Source: a virus (taxonomy: Duplodnaviria > Caudoviricetes). Taken from it: 64,000 nt of DNA. The stretch lies in IMG/VR virus record IMGVR_UViG_3300020190_000004, one strand, 5' to 3'. A model generated the notes under the pieces. That model saw nothing but the letters and a program-made list of their open reading frames with translations. It had not been told where the DNA came from and made no database searches. The number at the start of each line of letters is the position of its first letter. The stretch's first letter is position 1. Position numbers and translations under genes: made by a program. Positions 24,217 to 61,969 of this stretch are shown in pieces.

Positions 24217-24243
24217 TATATACATACCGTGAAAAGAGTTCTT
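24217..24243 (-). promoter_or_regulatory. candidate ECF-type promoter (AAGAACT-N14-TATATA)
   Basis: Motif repeated upstream of six genes; 18 nt before the ATG. Confidence 0.55.
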
Positions 24244-24252
24244 GTTAAGTTT

Positions 24253-24429
24253 TTAGGATTTAGGCAGCTTAACTTTAATAGCTGTGAGTATCACCCCGAT
24301 GCCAACGGTTATCCAGAGCGGTGAAAGAAGCCAAACCCAACCCCAGCTTGCGATTGGTTGTACATTAGCTAATTTAAGAAGTGTCATTAAGATAATGACG
24401 GCAATGAATGCATTTGTGTCTTTGTTCAT
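24253..24429 (-). CDS. small membrane protein (58 aa, WGWVWLLSPLWI)
   Basis: Read manually; below the ORF-track length cut-off; W.W.W.LSPLW motif. Confidence 0.6.
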   Translation of the reverse strand: MNKDTNAFIAVIILMTLLKLANVQPIASWGWVWLLSPLWITVGIGVILTAIKVKLPKS

Positions 24430-24450
24430 ATATGTTGGTTTTTCTCGTGT

Positions 24451-24717
24451 TTACGCCATAAGTAATATAACCCAAAGAAAGATGCCGACAGGCAATAGAA
24501 AATAGCGTCCGTAATCCAGTAAGAATCCGTCCAATTCATCACAAGGGCGAAAAGTGCATCGAAGCCAAGCGGGTTGAAAAAAGTTGCGACCATTAGTAGA
24601 ATGGTCCCCGGGTTCACCTTCTTCGCTGCTTTCGTTGCCAGGTTTGCTGGTGCTTTTAATAATCGTCTCACTACTGTCCATTGTTTTTGGTTTTGTTAAT
24701 TGCCTAATCGCTTTCAT
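24451..24717 (-). CDS. hypothetical protein
   Basis: ATG 18 nt below an AATATATA motif; the overlapping 24426..24671 membrane ORF is an alternative reading. Confidence 0.35.
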   Translation of the reverse strand: MKAIRQLTKPKTMDSSETIIKSTSKPGNESSEEGEPGDHSTNGRNFFQPAWLRCTFRPCDELDGFLLDYGRYFLLPVGIFLWVILLMA

Positions 24718-24740
24718 GTGTCGGTTAACAATAGTATATA

Positions 24741-24944
24741 TTATGAATGTTTCCTCGGTTTCCGCCCTCTTTTTGTTTTAAGGCTTTCATCTTCCTTTAG
24801 CTTTGCCATTTCTTGCTTGTACAGCAAGAGTAAATAGACTTGACAAGGGTTAAGACGACCATTTTGATATGGTAATATCTTAATCATTTCTGTCATGTGT
24901 TCTAAGGCATCGAGTTTTTCTTCTCGGGTTATCTGTTCTATCAT
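24741..24944 (-). CDS. hypothetical protein (67 aa)
   Basis: ORF tiling. Confidence 0.6.
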   Translation of the reverse strand: MIEQITREEKLDALEHMTEMIKILPYQNGRLNPCQVYLLLLYKQEMAKLKEDESLKTKRGRKPRKHS

Positions 24945-26230
24945 TTGAATCCAATTTTCTGTTTATCTTCTTTTACCTCGTGTATAAGAATATCTGATTC
25001 TTCTTTCTGTGCGTAAAACTCAGCAAGAGTTGCTGGGTATTGATCTACTTTTAGCGGATTAGATATCTTCAAAGCTTTTGCAAGCTTTTCACCGCGCGTG
25101 TAAGATAGCTTATTAAACTCTTTTCTAGCTAAGAGTCTTCCGGATCGTAACAAAGCTTTGTCAATGTTGGTGATGTTGGTATTAAATGTTGCTATGACCA
25201 TTAGTCCTAACATATCATTAAGAATACCGTCAGTCATGTTAAGTAAGTTGCTAATACCGGTACTTCTTCCGTCTGCTCCGTTACGAACTTCAAGGAGTGG
25301 CTCAGCGTCTTCAATAAGCAAGATACAGTCTTGTTCTTCATCAAGAACCCAATCACTAATAAATTCTATAATTCGTGGTTCAGTAAGACTTGATGAAAAA
25401 CTAGGCGGTACATACAAGATACTCTTATTTGAACGTGTAAGCTGGTCAAGAAGCATTCTTATGTACTGAGTTTTACCAGTACCTGGGTCTCCGTGAAACA
25501 AGATTAAACCTTTACTACCTTCTTTAATTTTAGTTATCATTTTGCCGTGAAATTCGCCAAAGCCTTCTCCATAGTGCTCATCAACATGAACGAAGTCTGG
25601 TACTTTGCCAGCAAGACTGAAGTTCTTAACATAAAAGTCTGAACCGTCTTGTGAGATGATACCAATCTTTGAAGTCTTATCAGCCTTAAACACATGTGCT
25701 GCAAAGAAGTTTAATATCTTTTGAGTAAAGTCAGTGTGTACTTCTTTTTCATATTCCTTCATGGGATAAACCAACTCAAAGCCGTCAATAACAAGCGGGC
25801 CATCATCTTTAGATGGAGTTGTGTAAGATGACTCGGTAGCAACAAGTTCGCGGTATGACATATACTTTTCACGCTTGTTTGTCTTGTGACAAGATGAGTT
25901 AAAGCTAATCATATAACCACCTTCGTGAATCCATGAATTATATGAAGTAAGTTTTTCTCGACCGCTTACTCCAAGATATTCATGAGAACGTATCAGTTGC
26001 CACCCGGTCTCTTTGAGATATTCTATAACAGGCTCGAGTAAATAACTTCTTTCTGTTGTTATTATACCAACAGGACCTACGTCAGGAAACGCTGAATAAT
26101 ACATAAATACCTCGGGCGAAGTAGCCATCAATCTACCCCTGCCAGATGATAATGCCTGTAACGTTAGTTCATTAGAGATAGTTGCTCTATATGATTCTTT
26201 AAGATGCCCTATCATTATATCCTTTTCCAT
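24941..26230 (-). CDS. AAA+ ATPase
   Basis: GDPGTGKT; ILLIEDAE; NLLNMTDG; IATFN; ALLRSGRL. Confidence 0.85.
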   Translation of the reverse strand: MEKDIMIGHLKESYRATISNELTLQALSSGRGRLMATSPEVFMYYSAFPDVGPVGIITTERSYLLEPVIEYLKETGWQLIRSHEYLGVSGREKLTSYNSWIHEGGYMISFNSSCHKTNKREKYMSYRELVATESSYTTPSKDDGPLVIDGFELVYPMKEYEKEVHTDFTQKILNFFAAHVFKADKTSKIGIISQDGSDFYVKNFSLAGKVPDFVHVDEHYGEGFGEFHGKMITKIKEGSKGLILFHGDPGTGKTQYIRMLLDQLTRSNKSILYVPPSFSSSLTEPRIIEFISDWVLDEEQDCILLIEDAEPLLEVRNGADGRSTGISNLLNMTDGILNDMLGLMVIATFNTNITNIDKALLRSGRLLARKEFNKLSYTRGEKLAKALKISNPLKVDQYPATLAEFYAQKEESDILIHEVKEDKQKIGFK

Positions 26231-26235
26231 ATTGA

Positions 26236-27207
26236 TTATATCTTGGTTTCCTCAGATAGTTCCGCTGTCTTATTAACAATTTTCTGTGGTCTTGCTCCGT
26301 GCTGTAGAGTTTCGAGAACACTTAGTTCTTTTGCCTTGGATTCACACATTAACCAGCCACCTGTGCCCCAATCTTGAAAGTCATCGTATATGTAATCAGC
26401 GTGTGCTACGGGTTTTGCTTCAGAAGTCTCGTAACGTTTCTTTGAAGAAGACCAGTGAATAACTAGTGGAGCGTCTTTCCAGGTGGAAGCAGCTAGATTA
26501 GCAGCGTCGTGGGCAGACAGTCCACCTGTGCAGAATGTATGGTGAAAGATATCAAAAGTGATAGGTACACCTACGTTTTTGTGGATTCTTTCATAGAGCT
26601 CTTGAACGCTGTACATGTTAGCTTTGTCATCATTCTCTACCACCACACGTTTGCGACAGTTTTCTGAAAGTCTTCCAAAGTTTAGACACCAACGTTCTGT
26701 TGCTGCCTGCTTATCCCCGTAAGCACCGCCCACGTGAATGTTGAGGCAGTTCCAATGGCTGGGTTCTAGACCCATAGTGTCAAAGATTTTGCTATGCTGT
26801 TCCAAATCAATCATAGATTTTAACACAGTGTTCGGGTTAGGTGAAGCTAGTATGGTAAAATGGTTTGGGTGAAATTCCATTCGCTGTCCAACCTCTGTGG
26901 CAAACTTGCCAATTCGTTGTAGGACTTCTTGAATAGCAGGCCAGTCAGGCAGATCTTCAAATTCATACTCGGTCATCCAGGGAAACAAGCAAGAAGATAT
27001 GCGGTAGAACTTGATACCGTTTTCTTCGTTCCAATGAATAATCTTTTCAAGGTCAATTACATTACCTAGTGCCAGCTTGCTGATGTGTGGTAAGCCTTTA
27101 GTTTCAAAGGTGCGCTTGATGGCATCTCTGTTGGTCATGACTCCGGTTTTGGCAAGAGTCATATTGATGCAGGCATAACCTACTCTGTCTTTGATAGCAA
27201 TTTGCAT
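26236..27207 (-). CDS. uvsE: UV-damage endonuclease (UvdE/UvsE)
   Basis: GYACIN; FYRISS..FPW; HP..F..L; NIHVGG.YG; ENDD; FD..HH; HADYI; ESKAKE. Confidence 0.9.
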   Translation of the reverse strand: MQIAIKDRVGYACINMTLAKTGVMTNRDAIKRTFETKGLPHISKLALGNVIDLEKIIHWNEENGIKFYRISSCLFPWMTEYEFEDLPDWPAIQEVLQRIGKFATEVGQRMEFHPNHFTILASPNPNTVLKSMIDLEQHSKIFDTMGLEPSHWNCLNIHVGGAYGDKQAATERWCLNFGRLSENCRKRVVVENDDKANMYSVQELYERIHKNVGVPITFDIFHHTFCTGGLSAHDAANLAASTWKDAPLVIHWSSSKKRYETSEAKPVAHADYIYDDFQDWGTGGWLMCESKAKELSVLETLQHGARPQKIVNKTAELSEETKI

Positions 27208-28635: not shown

Positions 28636-28699
28636 TTATAGTATAAAAATAACTAAAAGTTTCATACCAAGCAAATGCTCAAGCAAAAAGTTATTAACA
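28636..28699 (-). promoter_or_regulatory. early promoter element copy 13
   Basis: Consensus match; spacing 14 nt. Confidence 0.8.
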
Positions 28700-29131
28700 A
28701 AAATCTGACGCGGGTGGTAAGGTTCCACTGTGAGGGATGTCCCAGCGCTCACAATCTTGTGGAAAACGATGCAAGTGTTTGTAGTTATTGATATAGCCCA
28801 TCATATTGCCGCTGCCCACTGCATTTGCTGAATGTATCATAACTCGACAGGCAGGTTCACCGTCCAGCCATTTTTCCACTAGCCACTTAGTACAATCCAT
28901 ACCAGTCTTTTCTACGATGTTATCGTAGTTAAGAGTGTAGTTGGTAGAAACATTGGTGTACCATTCTTGCATTGCTGTATGCCCTAAGTCATGGTCAAGT
29001 GAAATGAGTTCAATGTTAGCAAGTCCAATCTCAGTAATCTTTTCTACGAACTCTTCATAATTGCGAACCACAACCCAAGAAGGATCGTGTGGAGTTCTTA
29101 TGTCATCTAGATATATCCTTTTCTTTTCCAT
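28694..29131 (-). CDS. cyclic-phosphate-processing receiver (REC)-domain protein
   Basis: IYLDD.R; ISLDHDLG; TGMDC..WL; IHSAN..G..NM. Confidence 0.75.
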   Translation of the reverse strand: MEKKRIYLDDIRTPHDPSWVVVRNYEEFVEKITEIGLANIELISLDHDLGHTAMQEWYTNVSTNYTLNYDNIVEKTGMDCTKWLVEKWLDGEPACRVMIHSANAVGSGNMMGYINNYKHLHRFPQDCERWDIPHSGTLPPASDFC

Positions 29132-29205: not shown

Positions 29206-29466
29206 TTATTGTAGCAATTCATCAATGTTAATTCCGTATTCCTCAAAGATCTCATGTATCTTTTCCATCGTCATGTGCACTGCATCATAAGGTGTGACTT
29301 CTTCTCCTCTGCTTTCTTTGCCTTCAATGTCGTACTCAAGAGCTTTCTTGGCGTTGTAACAGATTTGAAAGATCGCGCATGCCATGTCGGTGCTCTTAAC
29401 GGCCCTCATGTGAGCCATTCTGTCGTCTGAGTCATTCAGATCAAATTCTAAGGTTGCTTTTCCCAT
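29206..29466 (-). CDS. hypothetical protein (86 aa)
   Basis: ORF downstream of an ECF-like promoter; KATLEFDL motif. Confidence 0.7.
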   Translation of the reverse strand: MGKATLEFDLNDSDDRMAHMRAVKSTDMACAIFQICYNAKKALEYDIEGKESRGEEVTPYDAVHMTMEKIHEIFEEYGINIDELLQ

Positions 29467-29483
29467 AACTTATATTAGTTGTT

Positions 29484-29510
29484 TTATTACACGGTCTACA
29501 AATAGTTCTT
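29484..29510 (-). promoter_or_regulatory. candidate ECF-type promoter (AAGAACT-N14-TAATAA)
   Basis: Motif family match; 18 nt before the ATG. Confidence 0.5.
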
Positions 29511-30193: not shown

Positions 30194-33100
30194 TTAAGCC
30201 GGCATAGACGGCGGTTGTATGCGTCCTTTTACAATCACATCAAGCGGACCGGCTGTTATATTAGAGACAGTATGTTCAATAAGTATTTGTTCAATAGTTA
30301 AAGCTCTTACTAAAGGAGCATCTGCCGGGAAATAAGGCCATGTTACAATTATATCAAAACTATTGTCTAGCGTATTTAAGAACAGACCTACACCTGATAA
30401 ACTTAATTCTATATCATGGCCATTGCTAGCATATGTTAAGTAATTTCCAGGAACTATCATTAAAGGTATAAATCCTTCAAGAACCCAGTAACCTGTTCCT
30501 GTTGGTGTGTTAGCAGCAGCAGTAAACGGATCTGCATAAACAGCGATACTAACTTCATCATGCCATAAATTGGTATTCTTGATCGCCCACGAACTGCCAG
30601 TATCTCCGAACGTAATTGTATCACGAGGATTACTAAAAGATGAGTCATTGCAGCTTCTAGCAAAGCCCGAACCAGAACCAAGAAGGCCGAATATCGTTAA
30701 ATCTGCAGTAACACCACGCATGTTAAAGGTCCCATTGTAACCATTGCTCGCGTCAACCGCTTCGAACGTTGACGAAAAGAATTTGCATTCCCTTATTGTA
30801 TGAACCTGGGTGATGGTTGTAGATTCGAATGTGATCGCTGACATTGAATCCAGGTAGCAGGCACTTACGCTTAAACTAGCTTCCGGCCTGGTAACAAACA
30901 CGGAGAGAAAGTTGATAGATGATGCGTCAAGGGTGCTATTTTCCACACCAGAGACTCCGCCTGTTAAATTGTTAAAAAATCCTCCCTCACAAGTAACTGT
31001 TGATGAATTTTTTATAGTCGTATCGTTGATAGAAAATGCTTGCAGATACCCCGACAGGCTGATGCTTGAACGGGTGACATTTAAACCTTCACTTTGTAAA
31101 TTTGCTCCAAGATTTCCGTACCCACCGTGGTTCGCATGTCGGTAAACTGAATGAGAAGAATACCAACTTCCAAAGGGGTAAAACAAGTTATCTCGCCCGT
31201 GCGTATCGTGTCCATAGATGTTTTGCCATCTTGAGCCTTTCATTAAATCTCCAGCAACCCAGGGAGTTGCGTAAACGGTACTATATGCTTTATCATTATT
31301 TTCTAGGCTGTCAGCTACTTCAATATCGTTTAAGCGATCATATGCACGGCTAAACCAGCCTTCGCCTCCATCCAAACCTGTACTACATTCATAGTTAGCT
31401 TCTAAAGAAATCAGAGTTTCATCTCGCCCGTTTTCTGGTGTAACATTTAATTGGTCGCCCGTATTGATACTACTACCGGTTATTGATGTTGCCACAGTTT
31501 GAGAATTAAGCGACGCTGTATTTGTTTTTGACTCTAATAAAATGTAGCCCCAACCCTTCGACGAAGCGGAACCGTAGCCAGAATTCATGACGGTGTAATC
31601 TGAAAGCGAATTTGCATTAATGTCTGCTGTTAAATCATCAATGAACTGTTCTACATTAGCAGCAGGTGAAGCACCACCGGATCCTGTGTAACCTATAGGA
31701 TTAGCGTTTAACAAACTTCCGTCAACCGATAGTTCATCAAGCGTAGATCCAGTGGTTATAGCATCATCAAAGGTCCAACCTATAGCAAAACGGTTAGGAG
31801 CGCCTTGATAGAACTGCCACACACCTTCAACTTCATATGTGTCAGCTGTGATAGCTGTTGTAAAGAAACCAGAAACACCGTCATCAGATGATGTGCCTGG
31901 TGCGCCGCCTGTATAACCTGCGTCGTATATGCGATATCTTTGTCCAGGCGTTAATGAAGAGCCGTTCTTAGCTGTACTAAAATCGCTTTCTGAAATCGCA
32001 AGTATGTCACAGCAAGTTCCTGTTCCACTACTGCCGGTTGGCCCAGTAGGTCCAACCGCTCCAGTAAGTTCAAATACAATTATGTTAGACGAAAGCGGTG
32101 TTCCGTAGTATAAACTATTAAAACCAGCGCTTGCGATTGGTATCAAGTTTGTTAACTTGACAGATATCAAATCACCAGTGTCGAGTTCTAAGGCAACCGA
32201 AACATTTACCTGTGATTTAGGACCTGTGTAATTATCAACGCTGCTAGTAGGACCAAAGCTGTTGCTTTGTAAGGTATAGAACTTATGACCCAAAGGTGGG
32301 TTAGATCCTGGCGTAATCAGGGTAATGTCATATTCATCATCGACGGAATCGTATGTTACGTGAAATAGAGTAGTAGGATCTATGAATCTGTTAGTGGTAG
32401 CACTAACTATAAAAAACGGTACTCGTGATAGCGAATTCGTTCCGCATGACCAAGGTCCGTTTCCTATTAAGTCAACACTCTGGCCTTTGTGATTTTCAAG
32501 TGTGTGAACTACACCATCTGTCAGCGGAAACATCGGCAGGTCATTAACCAAGAGTTCAGCTTTTAAGAAGCCTGCGTAGTTTAAGTTATATGTAATAAAG
32601 TAAGTGCCTGTCGCCGGCACAGTGACATAATCATTCACACCAAGCCAAGAAAATCCGTTATTCACGCGAGGGTTTCGGTCCCACTGGACATTAGCAGTAG
32701 CACCGGGCGGTAGTGGGTTGTGGTCCCATTCTCCACCTTCAGGTAAATAGGCTGGAATATCAATGACTCTTAGTGCTGATCCTGCGGGTCCAGTCGCTCC
32801 AGTCACACCAGTGGGTCCAGTGGGTCCAGTGGGTCCAGTGGGTCCAGTGCGTCCAGTAGGGCCTGTAGCACCCGTGGGTCCTGTAGCACCCGTAGGGCCT
32901 GTAGCACCCGTAGGGCCTGTAACTCCTTGAGAACCCGTGGGTCCCGTAGGTCCTGTAACACCTTGAGGGCCTGTAGCACCCGTGGGTCCAGTGGGTCCAG
33001 TGGGTCCAGTGGGTCCAGTACCTCCTGTTCCACCCGTAGCACCGATAGGACCTCCACCGAAACCGTAAATCCTTATGATATCTCCGTCTAAAATTGATTG

Positions 33101-34417
33101 CGCCAGGGAATAACTGTAGTGATTGCGTACTACCTGAAATAAAGTGTGATTAAATCTATCGATCAAGAATTGGTCTGATACATAAGAAATGTCAGCCTGG
33201 TAATAATCTACCTTATCTCTCCAATCTTTAATAAGATTTTGTGGACTATGGTTAGGTGCGTCAAAAGTTTGCCATGCATCGCTCCAACTCCACGGTCTTA
33301 ACTCGTGAGTAGAACTTGCAGATGTGTATGAAGGGGGAACGTAAACTAACCCCAAGAATAGTTTGTCATCGCTAAGAATAGGCCAAGGAGAATAGGTATC
33401 ATATATTAAATGATCAGCTACATCACCAATTGAAAATATGGTACTGCTGTTAGAAAGCGTAGCATTTTCACTAAGCGTAATTGTAGTCCCTGATATGTTT
33501 GTTACATAAGTTCCTAGCGGAATTCCGTTACCTATAACAATGTCTCCGGTAACGCCAGGCATTGGGTGTACATTGGTAATAGAGTTAACTCCTGCTACAG
33601 TATTACCAACAAAAGCATAAAGGGTTCCGTTAGTATATGCAACCGCAAAAGAGTTATCAACAGGACTTAAACTTAAAGTTGCTGGAGAAACATCAACTGT
33701 ATCAATTACCCCCGCACCAGTATAACCAATGGCTGAAGCAGTAACGCCAATCCCAAGCCCCGGTCCAATAATAATGTCGCCGATGTTAATTGTCCCTGTT
33801 CCTAAACCAGCCAAATTACTTACGTCAAGAATGGAGTTTCCAGCTGTTCCTGAAGCCATGAAAGTAGTAGCACGACCTGTGTTATACGGTATCCCTTGAA
33901 CAGCACCAATTGCTCCTAAGTATTCCGTGCCTGATGTCCCAGGTACCATCGCCGGTGGAGCGGGAGATGGGAATCCGCTTTCTAGATATACAATATCAAT
34001 CCGCGCTTTGTTTACGTAGGTGTTATCGACGATTTGTATGTCTCCGTTAATTAAGGCTTGTTCATGGTAATAGTTTCTTCCGTATATTCTACCAACACCT
34101 GTCTCAACTTGCACCCACGTTGCTGCTCCTACTGCTGCTACAACATTAGGCTTTTGTACCTTTAGGCCTGATAAAATTGAGGGTTCGGTATTAGGCTGAA
34201 TAATCTCAGCGCCGTCTTGTGTATAAAGTTTACCTTTATCAAAATCAACGATCTCTTCTCCACGATAAATGGTTCTACCGCCGAAGTCTGTAGGGTTATC
34301 AACGTGGTTTGTCCCAGGTATAGCGCTCTTTGGTCTAGGCCAAGATTCTGCGGTAGAATTAAAGTACTTGTTAATTCTACGAACAAACGATGTTATAAGG
34401 TTAGTTTTTCCAGCCAC
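30194..34417 (-). CDS. large fibre/baseplate-associated structural protein with collagen-like G-P-T repeats (1407 aa)
   Basis: Central (GxT)n tract; beta-rich, Gly/Ser/Thr-rich flanks; late gene region. Confidence 0.75.
32782..33052 (-). repeat. 9-nt collagen-coding tandem repeats
   Basis: CCAGTGGGT / CCTGTAGCA / CCCGTAGGG units. Confidence 0.9.
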
Positions 34418-35474: not shown

Positions 35475-36415
<941 letters not shown>

Positions 36416-36419
<4 letters not shown>

Positions 36420-39143: not shown

Positions 39144-39725
39144 TTATTTCGTTAATTCTTCTTGTATTTCTTTCAACACACTATCTTCGTTCTCGATATC
39201 TATCCCGCTGTCAATAGCAGACTCAAGAGTACCACGATCTCTAACCAATTGATCAATCTCAGCACGATCATTTTTTGAACGGCTAAGAGCGTCAGTCACT
39301 GGCTTAAGAAGGTCATTTACAAACGAAGTTGCGTTCGTTAAGCCTTTACCTTCAACTTTGGTTAAGAAGTAGTAAACAGCTTCAACAGCAAGAGCTGGTA
39401 TAAGTAATTCTTTAGTCTTATTCTTAAGAATATCCTTTTGCGCGTCTTCTATTTGGCGAGTTGCCTCAATCACACCGAGTGCCTCGCTAAATTTCCAACT
39501 AGCATCTTCCTTCAAGAAATTTAATATAGAAGATGCTGTTTTAGTACCGCCTTCTATAATGTACTTCTTGTTTTCAATTTCTTTTTCCTTTGCTTCGATT
39601 TTTTCGCTAAGTTTCTTAACCATATCGGCTCGCATGACGTTTCTAACTTCTATTTCTTCTTTTTTAGAAACGATTTTTGCATTAATTTGTTGTTCTTGTG
39701 TTTCCATAATTTTTGATTTGTCCAT
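39144..39725 (-). CDS. coiled-coil hypothetical protein (193 aa)
   Basis: ORF tiling; GATATATA upstream. Confidence 0.7.
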   Translation of the reverse strand: MDKSKIMETQEQQINAKIVSKKEEIEVRNVMRADMVKKLSEKIEAKEKEIENKKYIIEGGTKTASSILNFLKEDASWKFSEALGVIEATRQIEDAQKDILKNKTKELLIPALAVEAVYYFLTKVEGKGLTNATSFVNDLLKPVTDALSRSKNDRAEIDQLVRDRGTLESAIDSGIDIENEDSVLKEIQEELTK

Positions 39726-39746: not shown

Positions 39747-40226
39747 TTAGAAGAGTTTCATTAAAAGATCCCATAGATAGGTAATTGCACTGAATGTCCA
39801 TGTATCTAACTTAGTTAAGAAAAATGTTAATACGAAAATTAACCAGATAAAAACTTTCCAAACTGTTAAGTAACTAAAGATTGGCACATAAACTATCAAA
39901 AAAGAATTAGTATCATTTACTTGTTCGTAGGCAGGTGATACTGAGTAACCTAAGCCAATTTTATCAATGTAAAGGTTCATTGGTTTAAGTCTATCAGCGT
40001 ACTTAATTTTGAGTATCTCAATCGTGTCCCCGTCGTCTGTTGGGGACTGAGGATTAAGTACCGTGTATATGCGCCCAACCCAATCAGCTCTCAGATTAAA
40101 CGATTCCCAATCAGAGGTTTTTTTGTGTTTTCTGATAGTTTTCATTACGTATCTCCAATTACTTAAGTCTATCCACAATAGACGAAGACCTCTAGCCTTA
40201 AAGAAATTTTTTAACCATGTAATCAT
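39747..40226 (-). CDS. hypothetical protein with C-terminal TM segment
   Basis: ORF tiling. Confidence 0.65.
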   Translation of the reverse strand: MITWLKNFFKARGLRLLWIDLSNWRYVMKTIRKHKKTSDWESFNLRADWVGRIYTVLNPQSPTDDGDTIEILKIKYADRLKPMNLYIDKIGLGYSVSPAYEQVNDTNSFLIVYVPIFSYLTVWKVFIWLIFVLTFFLTKLDTWTFSAITYLWDLLMKLF

Positions 40227-40834
40227 AATGCTTCTTGGTATTTTTTTAGTAACGCTGGATCTCTTTTGACAATTTCAGCCCTGATTAACCTGCGAGCTTT
40301 ATGTATGCGCGTTCTTACTGTATTTACTTTCCAGCCAAGATCTTCAGCGATTTCATCGTATTTCTTTTTCTCAACCTCACGAAGAGTAAGAACTTCTTTG
40401 TACATGTCTGGTAAGTTATTGATTTCTTCAAGAACGATGTCGTGTAATCTTTCAGTAGTATTTACAAATTCATCTTCAGCAAAATCAGGTATATCATAGC
40501 CCACTTTGGCTTCAACGTTGATACCCATCTCTTTCATTGCATCGTATGAATATGTTTTCTTTTTACTGCGGAAGAATAGCAAAGCTTCGTTGCGGGCGAT
40601 TCGGTAAACCCAAGTAGAAAAATTCCAATAAGGGTCGTATTGGTGAATTTTGCCCCAGACTTTGGCAAATGTAGTCGCGATAACTTCTTCACGATCGTCC
40701 ATGTTTGGTAGCATTTCTCGCAAGTACATACTGATACCAGGTTTCATTCTGTAGTAAACAGCGGTGAAGTCCTTTTCTGTGCGAGTTTCAAAAAAGTTAA
40801 GACCTATTCTTTGAAGTGTTTGTTTTTCGTGCAT
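40223..40834 (-). CDS. ECF-family RNA polymerase sigma factor
   Basis: Region 2 (DREEVIATTFAKVW...FSTWVYRIARN) and region 4 (LP..YKEVL.LR....YDEIA..LG...NTVRTRIHKAR). Confidence 0.9.
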   Translation of the reverse strand: MHEKQTLQRIGLNFFETRTEKDFTAVYYRMKPGISMYLREMLPNMDDREEVIATTFAKVWGKIHQYDPYWNFSTWVYRIARNEALLFFRSKKKTYSYDAMKEMGINVEAKVGYDIPDFAEDEFVNTTERLHDIVLEEINNLPDMYKEVLTLREVEKKKYDEIAEDLGWKVNTVRTRIHKARRLIRAEIVKRDPALLKKYQEAL

Positions 40835-40850
40835 ATATTATTTTTTGTTT

Positions 40851-40912
40851 ACAGTATAAAAATAACTAAAAATTTTCATATAGTAAACCATTTTTCTAAT
40901 AAGTTATTAACA
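40851..40912 (-). promoter_or_regulatory. early promoter element copy 15 (variant) upstream of the ECF sigma gene
   Basis: ACAGTATAAAAATAACT core + GTTATTAACA; spacing 15 nt. Confidence 0.75.
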
Positions 40913-40914
40913 AC

Positions 40915-41385
40915 TTAGCGACGGTTTATTGTTGTGTAATAATCTTGGTAGAGAGATTTTATGTCACCGTACATAATGCCGTAATTGTCAAGTATTTGTA
41001 GGTGTTTAGTTTCGCGGTATTCTTCGATCCAGTATATGTACTTGAACCCAGCATTTACTAGGACTTTTGTACATACACTACACGGTGAGTGACTAAGTAA
41101 AACAATGTAGTTTTCAGGATCACTCTCACGAAATTTAGCTATCATGTTCACCTCTGCGTGAATGAACCCTGATAAACCAGGATCAAGTGATTCTTCCTCA
41201 GTACCTGTAGTGGAATTAATAGGCGCATCAGGAAAGCTTCCGTTGTAGCCAAAAGATGCTATCTTCTGAAACTTTCGGTGAACCGATATTGCGCCAACTT
41301 TGAGACGAGAAGACGTAGACAGCTTGGATATCTGTTCAAGTATATTTACAAACGTGTCTACCTTTTGAACTATTCGGGGGGTCAT
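40915..41385 (-). CDS. dCMP deaminase
   Basis: KVGAI; GYNG; HAEVN; SPCSVC zinc ligands. Confidence 0.88.
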   Translation of the reverse strand: MTPRIVQKVDTFVNILEQISKLSTSSRLKVGAISVHRKFQKIASFGYNGSFPDAPINSTTGTEEESLDPGLSGFIHAEVNMIAKFRESDPENYIVLLSHSPCSVCTKVLVNAGFKYIYWIEEYRETKHLQILDNYGIMYGDIKSLYQDYYTTINRR

Positions 41386-41390: not shown

Positions 41391-41675
41391 CTATTTTGTC
41401 TCAGATTCTTCTGCTACCGGCTCAGCTGATTCTTGTGTTATTTCTTCCTTTGCTGATTCTTTAATTTGCGTAGGTAGAATTTGGAAAAATTCAGCTACTT
41501 CATTGTAAGGAAACTCCCCGACGAACTGGACGATTGAATTTAGTTCTTGTTCGCTGTAGTTAAAACCGTCACGGTTGATTAGGTTCATGTAAGGGAACAC
41601 TGCGGAAAATTTCTTAGTGTTCAAAAGAGCTGTTGCTCGCGTCTTAAACTCTGGGGTTACTGTGTAGTTTTTCAT
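41391..41675 (-). CDS. hypothetical protein (94 aa)
   Basis: Downstream of an ECF-like promoter. Confidence 0.7.
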   Translation of the reverse strand: MKNYTVTPEFKTRATALLNTKKFSAVFPYMNLINRDGFNYSEQELNSIVQFVGEFPYNEVAEFFQILPTQIKESAKEEITQESAEPVAEESETK

Positions 41676-41699
41676 GATTGAAGTTAATGATTTATTGTT

Positions 41700-41726
41700 T
41701 ATATAACGGTTTTGTAAATAGTTCTT
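41700..41726 (-). promoter_or_regulatory. candidate ECF-type promoter (AAGAACT-N14-TATATA)
   Basis: Motif family match. Confidence 0.55.
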
Positions 41727-42581: not shown

Positions 42582-42603
42582 GTGTTTCTCGTGTTATAGT
42601 ATT

Positions 42604-42630
42604 TATATTAAGATATTGAATTTAGTTCTC
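42604..42630 (-). promoter_or_regulatory. candidate ECF-type promoter (GAGAACT-N14-AATATA)
   Basis: Motif family match. Confidence 0.45.
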
Positions 42631-46200: not shown

Positions 46201-49200
46201 CCGAAGTCCATAAGAGGCGATGTAATGTTACTAAGTATAGCACCTATGTTTGTAGCAGAAGCTGTAAAGTGCCCTTCATTTAATTTAATGACTTTTCCAG
46301 GTACGATCATTGCGTCCTTAGTGCCCTTGTTAATCACTTCGTTTTCAATGACTTCAAGACTAGCCATCTGCTGAACACCTTTAGCAAGAGTAACCATACT
46401 ACTCGAAAGCTTGCCAAACATATCTAAACCCATTTCAATGTAGCCATCGCTAAACCAACTACTTCCTTCGTCAACAGCTTTACCGAATTCCATAAGGGGC
46501 GAAGTGATTGCGCTAAGAATAGCATTTATGTTTTTGGCAGCTGCTGAAAAGTCAGACTTATCGAGTTTTCTAACATCACCCATGACAAGTTTAGCGTCCT
46601 TAGTGCCCGGGTTAATTACAACGTTAGTCATTACTTCCAGGTTAGCCATCTTAGCTACACCCTCAGCAAGAACTACCATAGAGTCGCTAAGTTTAGGCAT
46701 CATTTCAAGACCGGATTCAATGTAACCTGCTGTAAACCAACCACTGCCTTCGTCAACAGCTTTACCAAATTCCATTAGAGGGTCTGTTAAGCTGGTGAGA
46801 ATTAACTTGATGTTTTTACTAGCTTCTTTAAAGTCAGACTTATCAAGTTTTCTAACTTCGCCCATCACAAGTTTAGCTTTATCTGTCCCAGGGTTGATTA
46901 CAACGTTGGTCATTACTTCCAGGTTAGCCATCTTAGCTACACCTTCAGCAAGCGTAGCAATAGAGTCCGCCATAATAGGCATCATCTCAAGACCCTTCTG
47001 CATAATGCCTTTTGTAAACCAACTACTACCAACTGAAGCAGCCATACCAAACTCCATTAAAGGGCCTGTTAATGTAGTAATCATTAACTTGATGTTATTG
47101 GCAGCGTCTTTAAAGTCGCTTTTCTTGAGTTTACGAGTTTCTCCTAAAACAAGTTGAGCTTTATCTGTTCCAGGATTAGCTACCACCATTGAGGTAACTT
47201 CAAGATTGGCAATCTTAGCAACAGCCTCCGCTAATGTTGTTATTGCATAGCTTGCGGTTGCCATTGCTATAGAACCGTACATAATAAGATATGCTGAAAT
47301 AGGATTGCCCATGATAGCAAAGCCTTCAAGTATTGCGTAAGCCAATGAAGTTATCATATCTCCCATCAGCTGACCAGTTTTCTTATCATACTTGACTTGA
47401 TTAAATACCGCGACTGCTCCTGTTAAAGCAATTATCCCCGCTGATGCAAAAACCAAAGACGTACCACCAAGAATCACAAAAAGAGCTATCAAAGGAAAGC
47501 CCAAAGAAGCTACCGAAAGACCTAATACAGAAATAGAGTCAGCGAGAGCATGTATGTTATCCATGTTTATTCCAGGTAACGAACCAATTACTGCAACCAC
47601 GCCAGCAAATACCATTAAAGGTATAGCTGCCGTTTCGAGAGCAATGGATCCAATAATAACAAGGGCAGCTAAAAGAGGTATACCAAATATCGCGAATGCG
47701 CCGGCTAGCAGTATGATGGATCCAGCAAGTGCTGCTGCGCCAGCGATTACTCTCGGCGCGTCGAGGAAAGAATAGATAGCAAGAACGGCAGAAAATATCA
47801 TTAAAGGGAAACTTGCCTTGCCAAGAGTAAAAGACCCTAAATGTATCGCTGCAGCAATAACAGGAATACCCGCAAGAGCAAATGCACCACCTAATAGTAC
47901 AATACTAATGGCAAGCGCACCAGCTCCCAAAATTATCTGCGGTGCGAAGAAACCAGCAACCAGAGCAGCAGCGCCAATTAGCATGGTAGGGTTTACCATC
48001 TTTTGAACCGCTTGAGCACCAAAGTCAATCCAGACCGCAACCTGTCCCGCAAGCGCAAAAGCACCGGAAAGAAGAGCTATTGCTACCGAAATTACTACAC
48101 CGCCCAAAAGAACTTTCATCGGAAATAGCCCTGCGATAAGTAATGCAACAGTGAGACTCAGGATAGGTTTAGTCATACTGTTAATAGCAGTTGCTGCCAG
48201 CGTTATTTCAGGGAATAAAGCGGCGGTTGCTCCCATCACGAGTAAAAGAACCCCCATCGCTAATATGAAGGTAAGCGCACCGATAGCGAACGTTTTAGCA
48301 AATAAACCTATAAGTACGAATGTTAAACCTAACCTAAATGCAACACCTGCAATTATGCTGATTGCTTCAGCGGCAGTGAGCACTGCGGGAAATAGCTTGG
48401 CTACTGCTCCAAATATAAGGAGCATAGCTCCTACTGTTAAAGCAAATACCAAGGCACCTATAGCAAACTGTTTAGCAAAAAATCCTATCAGAATGAATGT
48501 TAAAGTTAAACGGAACGCAGTACCAGCTATTGCAGCAATACCAGCAGTGGCTATTGCAAGCTGAGGCACTGCCATTGCAACCAATCCAAATATAAGAAGC
48601 ATGGCAGCAACAACGATTGCAAAAACCAATGCACCTTTCGCAAAAGGGACCATGAGTAGCGATATGATAGTCATTCCCAATGCAAACATAATAGCACTGC
48701 CACCTATACCTACAAGCTCTGCTACTGCAGCTACATTAGTGACCGCAGACGCAGCTAGCAAACTAAATAGTGATAACATGGCAAATACTACAACAGAGAA
48801 TACCAATGCGCCTAAAGCAGCCATTGGTGCTAAAAATAACCACGCAGCCATAGCAAGACCGAATAGCGCTGCCCCTCCGGCTACGCCCATAAGTTCTACA
48901 ACAGCGGCCATGTTTGTTGTGGCGTTCATAAGAACCCCTGATAAAATACGCAGAGTCATCGCAACTGTTGCCCCAAAACCAGCAGCACCCGCCATAGATA
49001 AAGGTGTCAAGACAGACATCGCAGCCATGTCTTTCATAAACGTGCCTGCGTTACCAAGGATAGCGTTCATAAGATCAGCTGTTGCTTGCATCTTCTCAGT
49101 ATCCATTTCCTTGGTGGCTTCATCTAATGCAGTTACGATATCGTTGATAACGATTGCAACATTAGACCCTAAACTCTTATCTATAGATTCTGCCTCGGAA

Positions 49201-49427
49201 AGTGCTTTAATAAGTTCTGCCAAGGCTTTTGCTGATGAAGCAATATCACCCGCATCGATTTTTTCTCCCTTTTTTTCTTCCTTGCCTTTGTCATCATCCT
49301 TGCCATCCTTGCCACCTTTGCCACCTGTATTCTTTTCAATTTTTTCAAGAATCGCGTTGATAGGTGCACCTGGGCCTAAAAGCTTATTGAGTTGTTGACC
49401 TATATACTGTGCATCTGCATTCGCCAT
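43206..49427 (-). CDS. tape measure-like protein with about ten 94-105 aa repeats and a C-terminal Peptidase_S74 chaperone domain
   Basis: Position after tube and chaperone genes; 2073 aa, Ala/Gly/Leu-rich; terminal SDRRLKDNI...GVMAQEL...VNY. Confidence 0.8.
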   Translation of the reverse strand: MANADAQYIGQQLNKLLGPGAPINAILEKIEKNTGGKGGKDGKDDDKGKEEKKGEKIDAGDIASSAKALAELIKALSEAESIDKSLGSNVAIVINDIVTALDEATKEMDTEKMQATADLMNAILGNAGTFMKDMAAMSVLTPLSMAGAAGFGATVAMTLRILSGVLMNATTNMAAVVELMGVAGGAALFGLAMAAWLFLAPMAALGALVFSVVVFAMLSLFSLLAASAVTNVAAVAELVGIGGSAIMFALGMTIISLLMVPFAKGALVFAIVVAAMLLIFGLVAMAVPQLAIATAGIAAIAGTAFRLTLTFILIGFFAKQFAIGALVFALTVGAMLLIFGAVAKLFPAVLTAAEAISIIAGVAFRLGLTFVLIGLFAKTFAIGALTFILAMGVLLLVMGATAALFPEITLAATAINSMTKPILSLTVALLIAGLFPMKVLLGGVVISVAIALLSGAFALAGQVAVWIDFGAQAVQKMVNPTMLIGAAALVAGFFAPQIILGAGALAISIVLLGGAFALAGIPVIAAAIHLGSFTLGKASFPLMIFSAVLAIYSFLDAPRVIAGAAALAGSIILLAGAFAIFGIPLLAALVIIGSIALETAAIPLMVFAGVVAVIGSLPGINMDNIHALADSISVLGLSVASLGFPLIALFVILGGTSLVFASAGIIALTGAVAVFNQVKYDKKTGQLMGDMITSLAYAILEGFAIMGNPISAYLIMYGSIAMATASYAITTLAEAVAKIANLEVTSMVVANPGTDKAQLVLGETRKLKKSDFKDAANNIKLMITTLTGPLMEFGMAASVGSSWFTKGIMQKGLEMMPIMADSIATLAEGVAKMANLEVMTNVVINPGTDKAKLVMGEVRKLDKSDFKEASKNIKLILTSLTDPLMEFGKAVDEGSGWFTAGYIESGLEMMPKLSDSMVVLAEGVAKMANLEVMTNVVINPGTKDAKLVMGDVRKLDKSDFSAAAKNINAILSAITSPLMEFGKAVDEGSSWFSDGYIEMGLDMFGKLSSSMVTLAKGVQQMASLEVIENEVINKGTKDAMIVPGKVIKLNEGHFTASATNIGAILSNITSPLMDFGKALDEGSGWFSDGYIATGVEYFGILTESLTTLATGIQGMANLEVTQNKVINKGTKEAMIVPDKVTKLQESDFKAAATNIGTLLSTLTAPLTNFGIQLEGGTGGGGFFSFFADAISPNYMQIGLEGLGTLSGSLTGLAEGMAKMANMEFITQEIVNKGTPDAKLVPGKVMKVTPQMMEQAALSVGALLAGMTSPLTDFGIALEGGTGGGGGLLDFFADLVSKDYMRIGLEGIGTLSGSLGSLAEGMAKMANMEFIEQTIVGRGTPDAKVVPGKIRQVTEGMMTQAGKNVGALIVSLTEPLTNFGKQLEGGTGGSGSWWDFWSDWVSPDYMRIGLEGLGTLSESLGGLAEGIVKMANLEVVVNKVIDDGKGGTKIVPDYVRKLSWVDFANAGSNVGTILSWIATPLTDFGKAMEEGSSWFSGGYVEKGLEGLGLLSESLGGLAEGVIKMAQMQVITQKVINPGTPKAKVVPDQVITLNEGHFELAAAGIGKILDGLAGPLGDFGRAYAGGGSFFGIVFGDVKSGIEAMGEVAEPIGVLADAIIKMGSGQFVQQEVVKDKKGNPKLVPGKVINFTDMVADAKVNLYDILTFFPGALSEAGHLAHANYEGLTHMMWHLDNTINPTFELLIETTELYSEATAVIMKVRAKYPEVYGLEFAGNSPFIWPVKRYISGAELISKSVGVLKDALWNFHTYINPGLQENVTASLLYYRATDIFQKAKDKNIPMDQLILSFDVSMSILGRTMKRDMNIPALQNLWHFTNQMQRLSNMVTPFERFTKAFTQFAKDMGTFSHNFMVMTPDGINAYKIWTDAVVTVANTDFSLIESKIQAMRDIAASIYKAGDPEIPGADLTQTLGEKLGAIGNTAQNVVSSPTPGSIVGGGGGGGGGDATAIAQAVKSALSNLTVQNLNVTGVMNTSDRRLKDNIKLIGVSPSGINIYEFTYVWDSNTRFIGVMAQELIGTEWEHAVVLDEHEYYAVNYSIIDVDFCLADEYIQYENDKI

Positions 49428-49512: not shown

Positions 49513-49920
49513 TTAGAAAAACTTCGGCATACTCGGCATACTCGGCATACTCGGCATACTTGGCATTTTAAAGCTTCCGGGGTTAAAGCTTGATGATTGC
49601 GCCCATGAAGGTAAACCTTGGTTAGCGTTTCTCATCATATCAGCAGCTCCGCGTCTAGCATCATCCATGCCGCTAGTGGATTGCTGTTCTTTTTCCTGTT
49701 GCTTTCTGGATTCATTTTCCCTTTCGTTCCAATTCTTAAGGTTGTCCATCAGCATTTCTGCTCTCCAAAATTCGAAGCGATCAAGCTCAGACGGTTGAAG
49801 ACGAAGAATTTTAAGCATGAGGAACTCAACCTCAAACCAATTCTCCAAAGATATCTGAAATAAGGAAAATAGACTTGACTCCTGACTGAAAGTTAAGCGG
49901 AGCAGTGGCCTCCGTCCCAC
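49513..49920 (-). CDS. tail assembly chaperone C-terminal part (T4 gp51 / gpT-like)
   Basis: SLENWFEVEF.M.K.L...SEL.R..FW pattern; overlaps the 3' end of the upstream chaperone; start uncertain. Confidence 0.55.
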   Translation of the reverse strand: MGRRPLLRLTFSQESSLFSLFQISLENWFEVEFLMLKILRLQPSELDRFEFWRAEMLMDNLKNWNERENESRKQQEKEQQSTSGMDDARRGAADMMRNANQGLPSWAQSSSFNPGSFKMPSMPSMPSMPSMPKFF

Positions 49921-50845
49921 TCATTGAACGATAGCGAACTTGCGGTTTAACCGAAGATGCTAGCATGTCAACTAATTTATCCATAACGGAGATCTTTTGC
50001 AATGACCATGTATACGATTCTTGCACAGCTTTATCATACACATTCTGATTAACACTTTTCCAATCCGGAAAAAGAAAAGGTGCGTACTTAACGAAAGATT
50101 TATCAAAGTTTGTACCGCTTTGTTGACGTTGCTTTAAGTAATTCTTGATGAATAGCATTGTTCCAAGAGACGGTAAATACATTTTGAAATTTTCACCGTT
50201 TTTCATACGAATATCAAAGCAACGATCGTTGTTATCAAAGTAATTCATTAATCTCTCATCTGCATTAAAGTAATCAATAACATCTTTAGTTACTTCTACT
50301 CTTTCTTCAAGACCTTCATCATTAGTAACAGTTACAAACATTTTATTTTCACCGTTCTTAAATGTATAGTCACGAATAGCAAAGATTAGATAGAAACGGT
50401 CAATTTCCTTTAGATCTTTGTATGTACCGGGTTTACCAGGCACTTTAATGCGAGCACACTTATCAACAATAAAGTTAAGCATGTCATCAACACCTAATAA
50501 GTCATTTTCGTCTATCGTTGACCAGTGGCGTATCTCAGCAACTGATGCAGAACGAATAGCAACTTGTGTCCCCGGTTCGTAAAACATACCCCCTGATGGT
50601 AGGTTTTCTAATGGAACAGTTTTCCAACCAAGCTCATTAGCAATTGGATCTTCTTCCTCATAAATTTTGAACTTCTCTGCTTTACCAAGTGAAGTTGGTT
50701 GTGCAATCAGAACGGGATCTTCTGCAACAGTTTCAACTTCAACTTTTTTAGCAGCAGCGGCAGCAGCAGCTTCTTCTTGCTGGGCAAGTAATTTGGCTTC
50801 TCGTTCAATCTGCTCTTTAAAGTCGTTGTTTTGTTCTTCTGACAT
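49832..50845 (-). CDS. tail assembly chaperone / baseplate hub subunit (T4 gp26-like)
   Basis: LPSGGMFY...IR....E pattern; position between tube and tape measure. Confidence 0.6.
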   Translation of the reverse strand: MSEEQNNDFKEQIEREAKLLAQQEEAAAAAAAKKVEVETVAEDPVLIAQPTSLGKAEKFKIYEEEDPIANELGWKTVPLENLPSGGMFYEPGTQVAIRSASVAEIRHWSTIDENDLLGVDDMLNFIVDKCARIKVPGKPGTYKDLKEIDRFYLIFAIRDYTFKNGENKMFVTVTNDEGLEERVEVTKDVIDYFNADERLMNYFDNNDRCFDIRMKNGENFKMYLPSLGTMLFIKNYLKQRQQSGTNFDKSFVKYAPFLFPDWKSVNQNVYDKAVQESYTWSLQKISVMDKLVDMLASSVKPQVRYRSMSGTEATAPLNFQSGVKSIFLISDIFGELV

Positions 50846-50865
50846 ATAAAATGGTTTTGTTTAAT

Positions 50866-50893
50866 TATATATCCATTGGCAAGAAAAGTTCTT
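50866..50893 (-). promoter_or_regulatory. composite promoter: AAGAACT-N15 plus GATATATA
   Basis: Carries both recurring motifs, 21 nt before the ATG. Confidence 0.6.
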
Positions 50894-50914: not shown

Positions 50915-50940
50915 AAAAAAAGGGAGCCAGAGCTCCCTTT
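50915..50940 (-). terminator. Rho-independent terminator after tail tube gene
   Basis: AAAGGGAGC/GCTCCCTTT stem with long T-run. Confidence 0.85.
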
Positions 50941-57958: not shown

Positions 57959-57959
57959 A

Positions 57960-59987: not shown

Positions 59988-59995
59988 TATATATC
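59988..59995 (-). promoter_or_regulatory. late-type promoter motif GATATATA
   Basis: 22 nt before the neck-gene start. Confidence 0.6.
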
Positions 59996-60075
59996 ACCCG
60001 GTCTGGGAGGCTAGATTACTTCATCAATAATCTTGAGTTTAAGAGCTTCTTTAGGTTGGGGAAGCGTTACTGCCA

Positions 60076-60489
60076 TTAGTCTTTAATTAGTTGTTCGAAA
60101 TTCTTTAATTCTTTTGCGAAGTCTTCCCCCAATATAAGAAGAGCGTCATCTACATCTCTTCGGGATATCTTGTGTATTTCACAGTACTTGCGAATAACAG
60201 CGTCGTCAACAGGTTGTGCAGCTTTCTTTTCTGCCTTAGCCTTAGAAGTTTTAACATACATCCACTGTGGAGTTCTGCTGTAACGTTGGCTTAAGAGCGA
60301 TTGCCAAAAAGTTACTGCTTGTCCTGGGTTAATCTTGATATGATTAAAGTAAGAAGCTTGAATAGGAAAACCAATACTACATAAACGATTAATCATAAAG
60401 ACATGTTTTCCTCGTTCATGCATTTTTGTTTTTCTAAACTCTTCGGGTTTAGCAACCATGTCATTTATGAATCCAAATAAATCGCTCAT
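60076..60489 (-). CDS. clamp loader small subunit (T4 gp62-like)
   Basis: FMINR...WMY.K..K...I..Y..IS..D...AL.IL pattern. Confidence 0.6.
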   Translation of the reverse strand: MSDLFGFINDMVAKPEEFRKTKMHERGKHVFMINRLCSIGFPIQASYFNHIKINPGQAVTFWQSLLSQRYSRTPQWMYVKTSKAKAEKKAAQPVDDAVIRKYCEIHKISRRDVDDALLILGEDFAKELKNFEQLIKD

Positions 60490-60818
60490 GCAGTTTGCCT
60501 ATTTGATATTTTATTCACCAAATCTTTTAAGTTCTTTGCTCTTAGCGCTAATTCATAATCTTCAGTGCTTACAAAGTAATCTTGCGCAAGGTCTAAACTT
60601 TCTATCATATCTTCTCGGTGCATCGTGATGTCAGCAAACGGGTACCGTGATTTTGTGTTTTCATAAAACTCTATAACCACAAGTTCATCAATGGTTGCGT
60701 CAGTTAACATTTTTTCTGTTGCGTCCATAGCGGTTTCATGAAGAATGTTCTCGTTTTCCCTTGACCATTCTACCAAAGTGTCAGCATCTTGTTCTATATG
60801 CACACGCGTAGGTTTCAT
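60486..60818 (-). CDS. acidic protein with UVR-like EDYE.A motif
   Basis: FVSTEDYELALRAKNL. Confidence 0.55.
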   Translation of the reverse strand: MKPTRVHIEQDADTLVEWSRENENILHETAMDATEKMLTDATIDELVVIEFYENTKSRYPFADITMHREDMIESLDLAQDYFVSTEDYELALRAKNLKDLVNKISNRQTA

Positions 60819-60820
60819 TC

Positions 60821-61924
60821 TTAAAGTTTGAATTGCGAGAAGATATCTGCCTCAAAGGTACGAGTTCCGCTGATAAAGCGAGTACCTTCAAGTATAAAGT
60901 TCATGTCGTAATTGTGAGCGCTTAAGATTAAAGTATGTTCTTTTTCATAAGCAGCTTTGAATTTCTCGACAATCTCAGAAGGAATTACCCGCTCATCAAG
61001 AAAGACCAACTGTAAGTTTCTCTCTAGTCTGCTCTTAACAGCCTCGGTAGGAGCAACTTGCTTACATGTTGAATTGATACCGTTAGAGATCTCAAGTGCT
61101 CTGTTTGGCAAGTCATACACATCGGTAATAGGTTTAACCATTTGCATCACTTCATAGATACGAGCAGCTTTGGATGGTGTAACCCTATAGGTTTTTCCCT
61201 TGTTCTCCCATGTCCAGATTGACGGAACAGTATCTCCGGCGTCACCAATGATTACTTTCTCAAAGATAATGTAATCAGGGTCAATTTCTTCTATAGGAAT
61301 TGCAGAAGCAGCCTCGGCAATTAAGTCTTTGCTGCGGTTCATAAATGTTGAAGCATCAAATAGATCATAGTCTTCTTTCTTGAGCCATTCAGAAAAACCT
61401 TTAGGCGCCACGATCTTGCGGCTCTTAGAGTTTGGGTTGTAAACAACGATAAAGTTTTTACCATTACATTTGATACATTGAGTCAAGTCTTTGTCACCGG
61501 TAATGATAATAGCATCTTCGCCTTGTTGAAAAAGTTTTTCTGCCCATAGGTACATCAAGTCATCGCCTTCAGCGCGTTCTTCTTTAGAAACAATGATACC
61601 TTTTTTCTTTAGGATAGCACCAAACTCATTCATGCATTTATAGAATGCGTCCCAATCAATAACAGACTCGTCTTTCTCGCGATTGGTTTTGTAACCACCT
61701 TCTTCAATAAGAACTTCTTTTCTCCAAGACTTAGAGTCAATGGTAAAAATGATACGGCTGGGATTGCCAAACGAACGAATAGCGTGAGTCATGTCAGTCG
61801 CGATTTTGCGAATGAACATTTCTTGGTCAGTGTCAGTGCTTAATACTTTACCTTTCTTTGCGTAGCTGCCAAAAATGAAAAGCGTTTTATAGAACAAGTA
61901 GTTCCCGTCGAATATAAGATTCAT
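60821..61924 (-). CDS. 5'-3' exonuclease / RNase H (T4 rnh-like)
   Basis: LIFDGNYL; DSKSWRK; Y.YKTNR; AEGDD; GDKDL; GDAGDTVP. Confidence 0.88.
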   Translation of the reverse strand: MNLIFDGNYLFYKTLFIFGSYAKKGKVLSTDTDQEMFIRKIATDMTHAIRSFGNPSRIIFTIDSKSWRKEVLIEEGGYKTNREKDESVIDWDAFYKCMNEFGAILKKKGIIVSKEERAEGDDLMYLWAEKLFQQGEDAIIITGDKDLTQCIKCNGKNFIVVYNPNSKSRKIVAPKGFSEWLKKEDYDLFDASTFMNRSKDLIAEAASAIPIEEIDPDYIIFEKVIIGDAGDTVPSIWTWENKGKTYRVTPSKAARIYEVMQMVKPITDVYDLPNRALEISNGINSTCKQVAPTEAVKSRLERNLQLVFLDERVIPSEIVEKFKAAYEKEHTLILSAHNYDMNFILEGTRFISGTRTFEADIFSQFKL

Positions 61925-61941
61925 ATAATTTACTTTAGTTT

Positions 61942-61969
61942 TATATACCGCGAATGTACTATAGTTCTT
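61942..61969 (-). promoter_or_regulatory. candidate ECF-type promoter (AAGAACT-N15-TATATA)
   Basis: Motif family match; 18 nt before the ATG. Confidence 0.55.

Follow-up and report, generated by a model that had tools for sequence, protein, structure and literature searches.

The IMG/VR virus record IMGVR_UViG_3300020190_000004 (Duplodnaviria; Caudoviricetes) was analysed over a stretch of 64,000 nucleotides (nt), hereafter the window, in which all genes lie on the minus strand (coding density of this strand, 0.93) and include those for the terminase, tail sheath, tail tube, head-closure protein, clamp loader and a 5'-3' exonuclease. The subject of the present analysis is a gene for a sigma factor of the extracytoplasmic function (ECF) type, located at 40223..40834, together with a set of two-box sites on the same strand, designated M, which this sigma factor probably reads. 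A preliminary description of the window had proposed that the two form a middle tier of transcription. No close relative of the window was found among GenBank phages (megablast, no match), and a tblastn search with the sigma protein against phage records retrieved only matches of ~20-31% identity. Comparisons were made with a set of 24 IMG/VR loci, whose sigma orthologs are 37-70% identical to the window sigma; five contigs of 66-238 kb, taken nearly in full from this set and syntenic with the window, are referred to as the large relatives. Scans of the window for tRNA genes and Rfam families gave no match. The best explanation for the source of the window is an uncultured T4-related jumbo phage of Bacteroidota, in which three promoter classes time the expression of the genes. 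Other Bacteroidota jumbo phages, the 'moraphages', have been described in a paper that does not discuss promoters (PMC12619734).

The sigma gene (minus strand) codes for a protein of 203 amino acids (aa) in which Pfam recognised Sigma70_r2 (4e-11, residues 31-93) and Sigma70_r4_2 (4e-15, residues 132-182) and no other domain. TIGR02937 scored 69.4 bits (cut-off, 42.9), none of the equivalog and subfamily models scored high enough to pass, and the nearest solved structures were those of SigW (5wuq) and sigmaE (1or7); the identification of the gene as an ECF sigma in the preliminary description was thus confirmed. A single ortholog is present in each of the 24 relatives. The region 4.2 helix, TVRTRIHKAR, aligns with TVRSRIFRAR of sigmaE and TVKTRIHRGR of SigW. 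Arg171 of sigmaE, which reads the C of the AAC core (PMC1540707), has its equivalent in 16 of the 17 aligned sigmas, the most distant relative (L023) carrying Lys, and the residue equivalent to sigmaE Arg176 is Lys in the window sigma. The family comprises at least 199 clusters at 90% identity and is abundant in freshwater metagenomes. Among the matches listed, the 120 closest relatives are 58-100% identical, many of them residing on contigs whose length (100-318 kb) is typical of these phages, and no close bacterial donor was seen among these 120, which leaves the earlier designation of the sigma as 'captured' unsupported.

In its uniform form the M motif reads AGAACT-N15/16-ATATAA on the minus strand. 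The exact motif occurs six times on this strand and never on the plus strand, against 0.05 +/- 0.22 expected from 100 dinucleotide shuffles; when one mismatch was allowed, ten minus-strand copies and one plus-strand copy were found (0.98 +/- 0.91 in the shuffles). All six minus-strand sites originally cited were retrieved at their places, and all are intergenic. The first (61941..61968, AGAACT-N16-ATATAA) precedes the 5'-3' exonuclease/RNase H gene (60821..61924, PF02739). The second (50865..50892) follows a terminator hairpin (50919..50940), precedes gene 49832..50845 and has within its -10 box also the late octamer GATATATA, described below. The third (42603..42629), again preceded by a terminator hairpin (42674..42699), lies before 42294..42581 and the guanylate/dNMP-kinase-like gene 41725..42297, and the fourth (41699..41725) before 41391..41675 and the dCMP deaminase gene 40915..41385. 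The second and third sites have orthologous sites in the relatives, and so has the fourth in those relatives carrying the downstream gene. The remaining two are located at 29482..29509, with ATAAAA as -10 box, before 29206..29466, and at 24216..24242, before the HAD_SAK_2 phosphatase-like gene 23702..24199 (PF18143). The RNase H and HAD genes had accordingly been rightly placed behind the motif, while the product of 49832..50845, previously termed a tail chaperone, has no family support and its promoter is a middle/late hybrid. The last A of ATATAA lies 15-23 nt before the start codon; the 18-25 nt given earlier is correct in its own frame, which takes the 3' end of the -10 box as the coordinate of a site.

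Further candidates were detected at 60509..60535 (one mismatch, -10 box AATAAA), inside the end of 60486..60818 and before 60076..60489, and at 26236..26263 (GGAACT-N16-ATATAA), separated by only 5 nt from the AAA ATPase gene 24941..26230 downstream. The sixth exact copy (2248..2275), which had not been cited, has no nearby start codon and is of uncertain status; it marks one edge of a GC-rich stretch of 2.3 kb, the other edge of which carries an M-like copy (4465..4492, AGAACC-N16-ATATAA). In the window and in the relatives the -35 box corresponds to RRAACT followed by nTTT, that is, an AAC core with an upstream purine and a downstream T-tract, and the spacer is 15 or 16 nt at every site, within the 14-17 nt range of ECF promoters (PMC5758882). 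The CG dinucleotide previously reported just upstream of the -10 box is indeed present at four of the six window sites; its distance varies and it is not kept in the relatives, which read G(A/T)ATATAA.

Across the 24 loci, the one-mismatch motif was found at 67 sites on the gene strand versus 4 on the opposite strand, and the sites lie at the starts of orthologous genes, where both boxes persist as the spacers diverge. An exact search of the five large contigs gave 54 gene-strand and 3 opposite-strand copies, with a single match for the reversed-pattern control. The T4 genome (169 kb) yielded one match, a chance level. The motif is accordingly real, specific to one strand and conserved beyond the window. 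When only AAC and ATATAA were fixed, the hexamers near gene starts were almost all RRAACT. The clade of the window prefers AGAACT with N15-16, and a clade with a sigma ~52% identical prefers AAAACTTTTT, N15 and GAATATAA. In one distant relative having Arg at the position of sigmaE Arg176, the only two sites, on a contig with few of them, read GAAAC. Sigma and motif co-occur in all 24 relatives.

The genes found behind M sites belong to replication, recombination and nucleotide metabolism. In the window they include, as listed above, the 5'-3' exonuclease/RNase H, HAD_SAK_2, AAA ATPase, dNMP-kinase-like and dCMP deaminase genes. In the 238-kb relative an M site of its own precedes each of the two topoisomerase II subunits, the DNA polymerase, the DnaB-like helicase and the NTP pyrophosphohydrolase, and in another relative M sites precede the clamp loader and an exonuclease-like gene. 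This set matches the genes that T4 expresses from middle promoters. One of the large relatives bears, behind an M-type promoter, a second ECF-like sigma of 205 aa, 24% identical to the main one (G002 contig 192212..192691; oriented 9710..10327; loci L025-L035), with no counterpart in the window or the remaining four large contigs.

Two other promoter classes can be distinguished. The early (E) box is an 80-nt element with 16 copies on the minus strand and none on the plus strand, beginning with the near-palindrome GTTAATAAC and containing TTTG-N20-TAATTTTA; in the relatives it reads TTTG-N20-TAnnTTTG. As the flavobacterial sigma-A promoter carries TAnnTTTG (PMC9723704), the form of the E box suggests that the host belongs to Bacteroidota. 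Within 1..23700 the box stands before small genes, and the sigma gene has a diverged copy in front of it (40835..40914, minus strand), as the preliminary description had it: the GTTAATAAC element, at 40911, is followed by TTTA-N19-TATTTTTA, with a TAnnTTTa -7 box near 40865. Judged by its sequence (TTTA-N19-TAnnTTTa), the promoter of the sigma gene would thus be of the host-type early class. The GTTAATAAC box was found upstream of sigma in 18 of the 24 relatives, several having the TAnnTTTG -7 box as well.

The near-palindrome, in the form GTTAATAAC(TT), opens every early box and is usually placed at the stop codon of the preceding gene (16 minus-strand sites, e.g., 62679, 40911, 29544, 23698 and 5784). 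The copy at 29544 precedes the M promoter 29482..29509 rather than an early box. A dimeric regulator may bind there, or the sequence may act as an upstream promoter element.

The late (L) class consists of the octamer GATATATA, with seven copies on the minus strand, none on the plus strand and no -35 box. It precedes the head-closure, sheath and tube genes, the gene for a 2073-aa protein and other virion genes (minus-strand sites before virion genes at 59995, 55452, 51555, 49462, 39735 and 35446). As 2 nt separate the end of the copy at 39735 from the annotated start of 39144..39725, translation may truly begin at an ATG 18 nt further on. A single -10-region box without -35 box fits the definition of a gp55-type late promoter, which the M sites do not fit. 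In agreement with this class, a gp55-like protein of 114 aa was identified in a relative by synteny and PHROGs (phrog_234, 2e-12), although BLAST of T4 gp55 against the relatives had given chance hits only. In each of the five large relatives there is one conserved sigma combining regions 2 and 4, besides one gp55-like sigma limited to region 2.

An M promoter was also considered for the gp55-like gene. An M-like match lies ~285 nt upstream of it (L036:11115-11141, with orthologous places in G001, G002, G004 and G005), two relatives reading TATACAA there. The match sits within coding sequence, where it spells a conserved peptide (LFE-A/T-GVYNSE), and being kept as protein it could not be counted as a promoter.

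On the basis of these sequence features, the M sites are very probably a real promoter set, and the phage ECF sigma is proposed as their reader, with a probability that we put at about 0.72. In the proposed cascade, the unmodified host RNA polymerase would read the early box promoters (TTTG-N20-TAnnTTT[G/A], the Bacteroidota sigma-A form), from which numerous small genes, and the phage ECF sigma with them, would be transcribed. The sigma would then bind the host core polymerase and direct it to the M promoters (RRAACT followed by a T-rich stretch, then N15-16 and ATATAA); the -35 box, which contains AAC, would be recognised by region 4 and the -10 box, made of A/T only, by region 2, and the replication, recombination and nucleotide-metabolism genes would be switched on. 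Finally, the gp55-like minimal sigma would read the single-box late promoters before the virion genes. We infer this temporal order of the classes, including the 'middle' timing of M. A short way upstream of the sigma gene are two M promoters (at 41725 and 42629), and no terminator was found between them and the gene, so that read-through may sustain a positive feedback loop on sigma.

Several lines of evidence argue for the link between the sigma and the M promoters. The M layout, with its purine, AAC, T-tract and spacer of 15-16 nt, is that of ECF promoters, in which a -35 box arranged as purine, AAC and T-tract is followed by a 14-17 nt spacer (PMC1540707, PMC5758882), and the region 4.2 helix aligns with those of sigmaE and SigW and, except in L023, keeps the AAC-reading Arg. 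In the five large relatives, since class E fits host sigma-A and class L fits gp55, M is left for the ECF sigma. In the same five relatives, no match was obtained for AsiA and the MotA C-terminal domain (PF09010, PF09158), the best contig being 84% complete, and both were matched in the T4 positive control, in accordance with the earlier suggestion that the tier is run without MotA/AsiA.

Some observations weigh against the phage sigma as reader of M. Whereas many ECF sigmas are autoregulated, this sigma gene lacks an M promoter of its own, and the M -10 box ATATAA lacks the CGT/GTC-type core that marks many ECF promoters, including those of the flavobacterial SM6 class (PMC9723704). This -10 box resembles the late octamer, and the site 50865..50892 has both. 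Under the Ser/Thr-172 rule of Lane and Darst, the Thr of this sigma should go with A at -34, whereas the window clade prefers G (AGAACT) and other clades A. Co-variation of region 4.2 with the -35 box was sought and not obtained in a clean form, as the helix NTVRTRI is invariant while clades prefer either AGAACT or AAAACT. Finally, the second, unrelated ECF-like sigma behind an M promoter in one relative implies that extra readers exist in the lineage.

The explanation that survives best beside the phage sigma is that an ECF sigma of the Bacteroidota host reads the M promoters and the phage sigma has another task. An AAC-type -35 box is indeed generic to ECF sigmas (PMC1540707), of which Bacteroidota carry many. 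The known flavobacterial ECF class, SM6, has on the contrary CGT at -10 (PMC9723704), where M has ATATAA with no fixed CG; moreover, the phage sigma accompanies the motif in all 24 relatives and stands under an early-type promoter, and no other target motif for it was seen. We consider a host reader improbable.

The resemblance of ATATAA to GATATATA, and their overlap at 50865..50892, would also be accounted for if M were a subclass of late promoters, read by the gp55-like sigma with a helper protein that binds AGAACT. The late sites have no -35 box and stand before sheath, tube, head-closure and other virion genes, whereas M sites stand before replication genes. Furthermore, two boxes 15-16 nt apart fit a sigma with regions 2 and 4, the gp55-like protein having region 2 only, and other clades have GAATATAA as their M -10 box, which differs from the late octamer. 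This makes the arrangement quite improbable.

A third possibility follows the model of T4, a distant relative, whose middle genes are run by host sigma appropriated by phage proteins (PMC2988021): a phage activator binding AGAACT, analogous to MotA/AsiA, would direct host sigma-A to M. Given that both boxes of Bacteroidota sigma-A promoters, TAnnTTTG at -7 and TTTG at -33, are missing from M, and that the AsiA and MotA domains recognised in the T4 control were not found in the five large relatives, such an appropriation is very improbable. That the motif is no promoter at all, serving instead a repressor or a replication/packaging protein, is scarcely credible in view of two boxes at sigma-like spacing, of the strict gene orientation, of the short fixed distance to start codons, of the frequent position after terminator hairpins and of the persistence of both boxes, with free spacers, at orthologous gene starts.

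Directly downstream of the sigma gene, a 159-aa membrane protein is encoded at 39747..40226 (minus strand), its start overlapping the sigma stop, an arrangement of translational coupling. This gene follows the sigma gene in each of the 24 loci, the two being spaced by -8 to +16 nt, and hence the previous statement that no anti-sigma is evident next to the sigma is not safe. No Pfam or PHROG family was found for it, and the good matches in the ESM Atlas were unnamed clusters only, one of them viral. Its confident AlphaFold model (pLDDT, the predicted local distance difference test score, 88.7) has an alpha/beta domain followed by a C-terminal helical hairpin, for which the PDB fold search returned no match at E <= 0.001 and no anti-sigma-domain-like match. 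When the sigma was modelled in complex with the first 120 residues of the membrane protein, the score was 0.00, which counts neither for nor against pairing. The protein may be regarded as a candidate regulator of the sigma. It is a rather doubtful, more speculative proposal that the two constitute a phage-encoded, membrane-tethered sigma/regulator pair, that is, a new kind of anti-sigma or sigma-release device which would gate the early-to-middle switch, or end the middle tier at late onset, in a widespread lineage of T4-type Bacteroidota phages.

Sigma cascades of phages are already well known (phiEco32, 7-11, SPO1); in the literature searched, no case was found of a T4-type phage whose middle genes, or replication tier, are served by an ECF sigma instead of MotA/AsiA. 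The sigmas of phiEco32 (gp36) and Salmonella phage 7-11 (PMC4331800) offer a close parallel, being small, ECF-like sigma70-family factors of lytic phages that redirect the host core polymerase to conserved, low-copy, phage-specific promoters, with gene classes separated in time and a regulon readable by intergenic comparison. Those phages are, however, small podoviruses of enterobacteria, their sigma and promoter sequences are unrelated to those of the window, and their systems were tested experimentally. The window sigma, in addition, would govern the replication tier only, the late genes being left to a separate gp55-like sigma. In the SPO1 cascade (gp28, then gp33/gp34; PMC13401047), sigmas likewise replace one another stepwise on the host core polymerase to produce early, middle and late classes, but they are neither ECF-type nor related to gp55, and host phylum and promoter sequences differ.

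With the T4 middle mode (PMC2988021) the window lineage shares the superfamily, the class of genes involved (replication and nucleotide metabolism) and the position of the tier between host-type early and gp55-type late promoters, the late class of both lacking a -35 box. In T4, AsiA together with MotA, bound at the -30 MotA box, remodels host sigma70, whereas the window lineage encodes an additional, complete sigma and has, at -35, an AAC element of the ECF type. As regards sigmaE (GGAACTT-N16-TCnaA) and SigW (TGAAAC-N16-CGTA) (PMC1540707, PMC5758882), the region 4.2 helix is nearly identical, the AAC core and T-tract are shared and the spacer falls within 14-17 nt. Unlike in these bacterial systems, the -10 box of the window is A/T-only with no CGT/GTC core, Lys stands at the position of Arg176 and the upstream purine is in most cases A, not G; the window sigma is moreover viral, lies behind a host-type promoter and has no protein with a recognisable anti-sigma domain found for it.

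T4 is the textbook model of phage gene timing and, to our knowledge, MotA and AsiA are confined to T-even-type phages. To the question of how replication genes are switched on elsewhere in the T4 superfamily, the present Bacteroidota phage lineage gives a concrete candidate answer: if the proposed reading is true, a complete ECF sigma with a readable promoter code has been inserted between host-type early and gp55-type late promoters. As the sigma family is abundant, such a rule would help to annotate many genomes of uncultured phages. Bacteroidota have few genetic tools, and a sigma/promoter pair with an unusual A/T-only -10 box could also be of use there as an orthogonal expression part.

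Additional features of the window were recorded. The GC-rich stretch bordered by M-like motifs (2150..4490, 2.3 kb) has a GC content of ~55% within a genome of ~39%; it has no homolog in the five large relatives, its open reading frames have no Pfam family and it gave no Rfam or tRNA match. The stretch may be a foreign insert or an assembly join. The genes for HAD_SAK_2, an HAD of the RNA-repair type, for a UvdE UV endonuclease and for a cREC_REC receiver domain involved in cyclic-phosphate processing are clustered (23702..24199, 26236..27207 and 28694..29131, respectively), which hints at an RNA/DNA repair module. Collagen triple-helix repeats are present in the large proteins encoded at 30194..34417 and 35475..36419, one of which has a weak match to the BclA C-terminal domain, and these proteins are probably fibres. 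Lastly, the 2073-aa protein (43206..49427), with no Pfam family, shows many hydrophobic segments at the N-terminus followed by ~10 repeats of ~95 aa; since its gene lies behind a late promoter and after the tail tube gene, it may have a tape-measure-like role.

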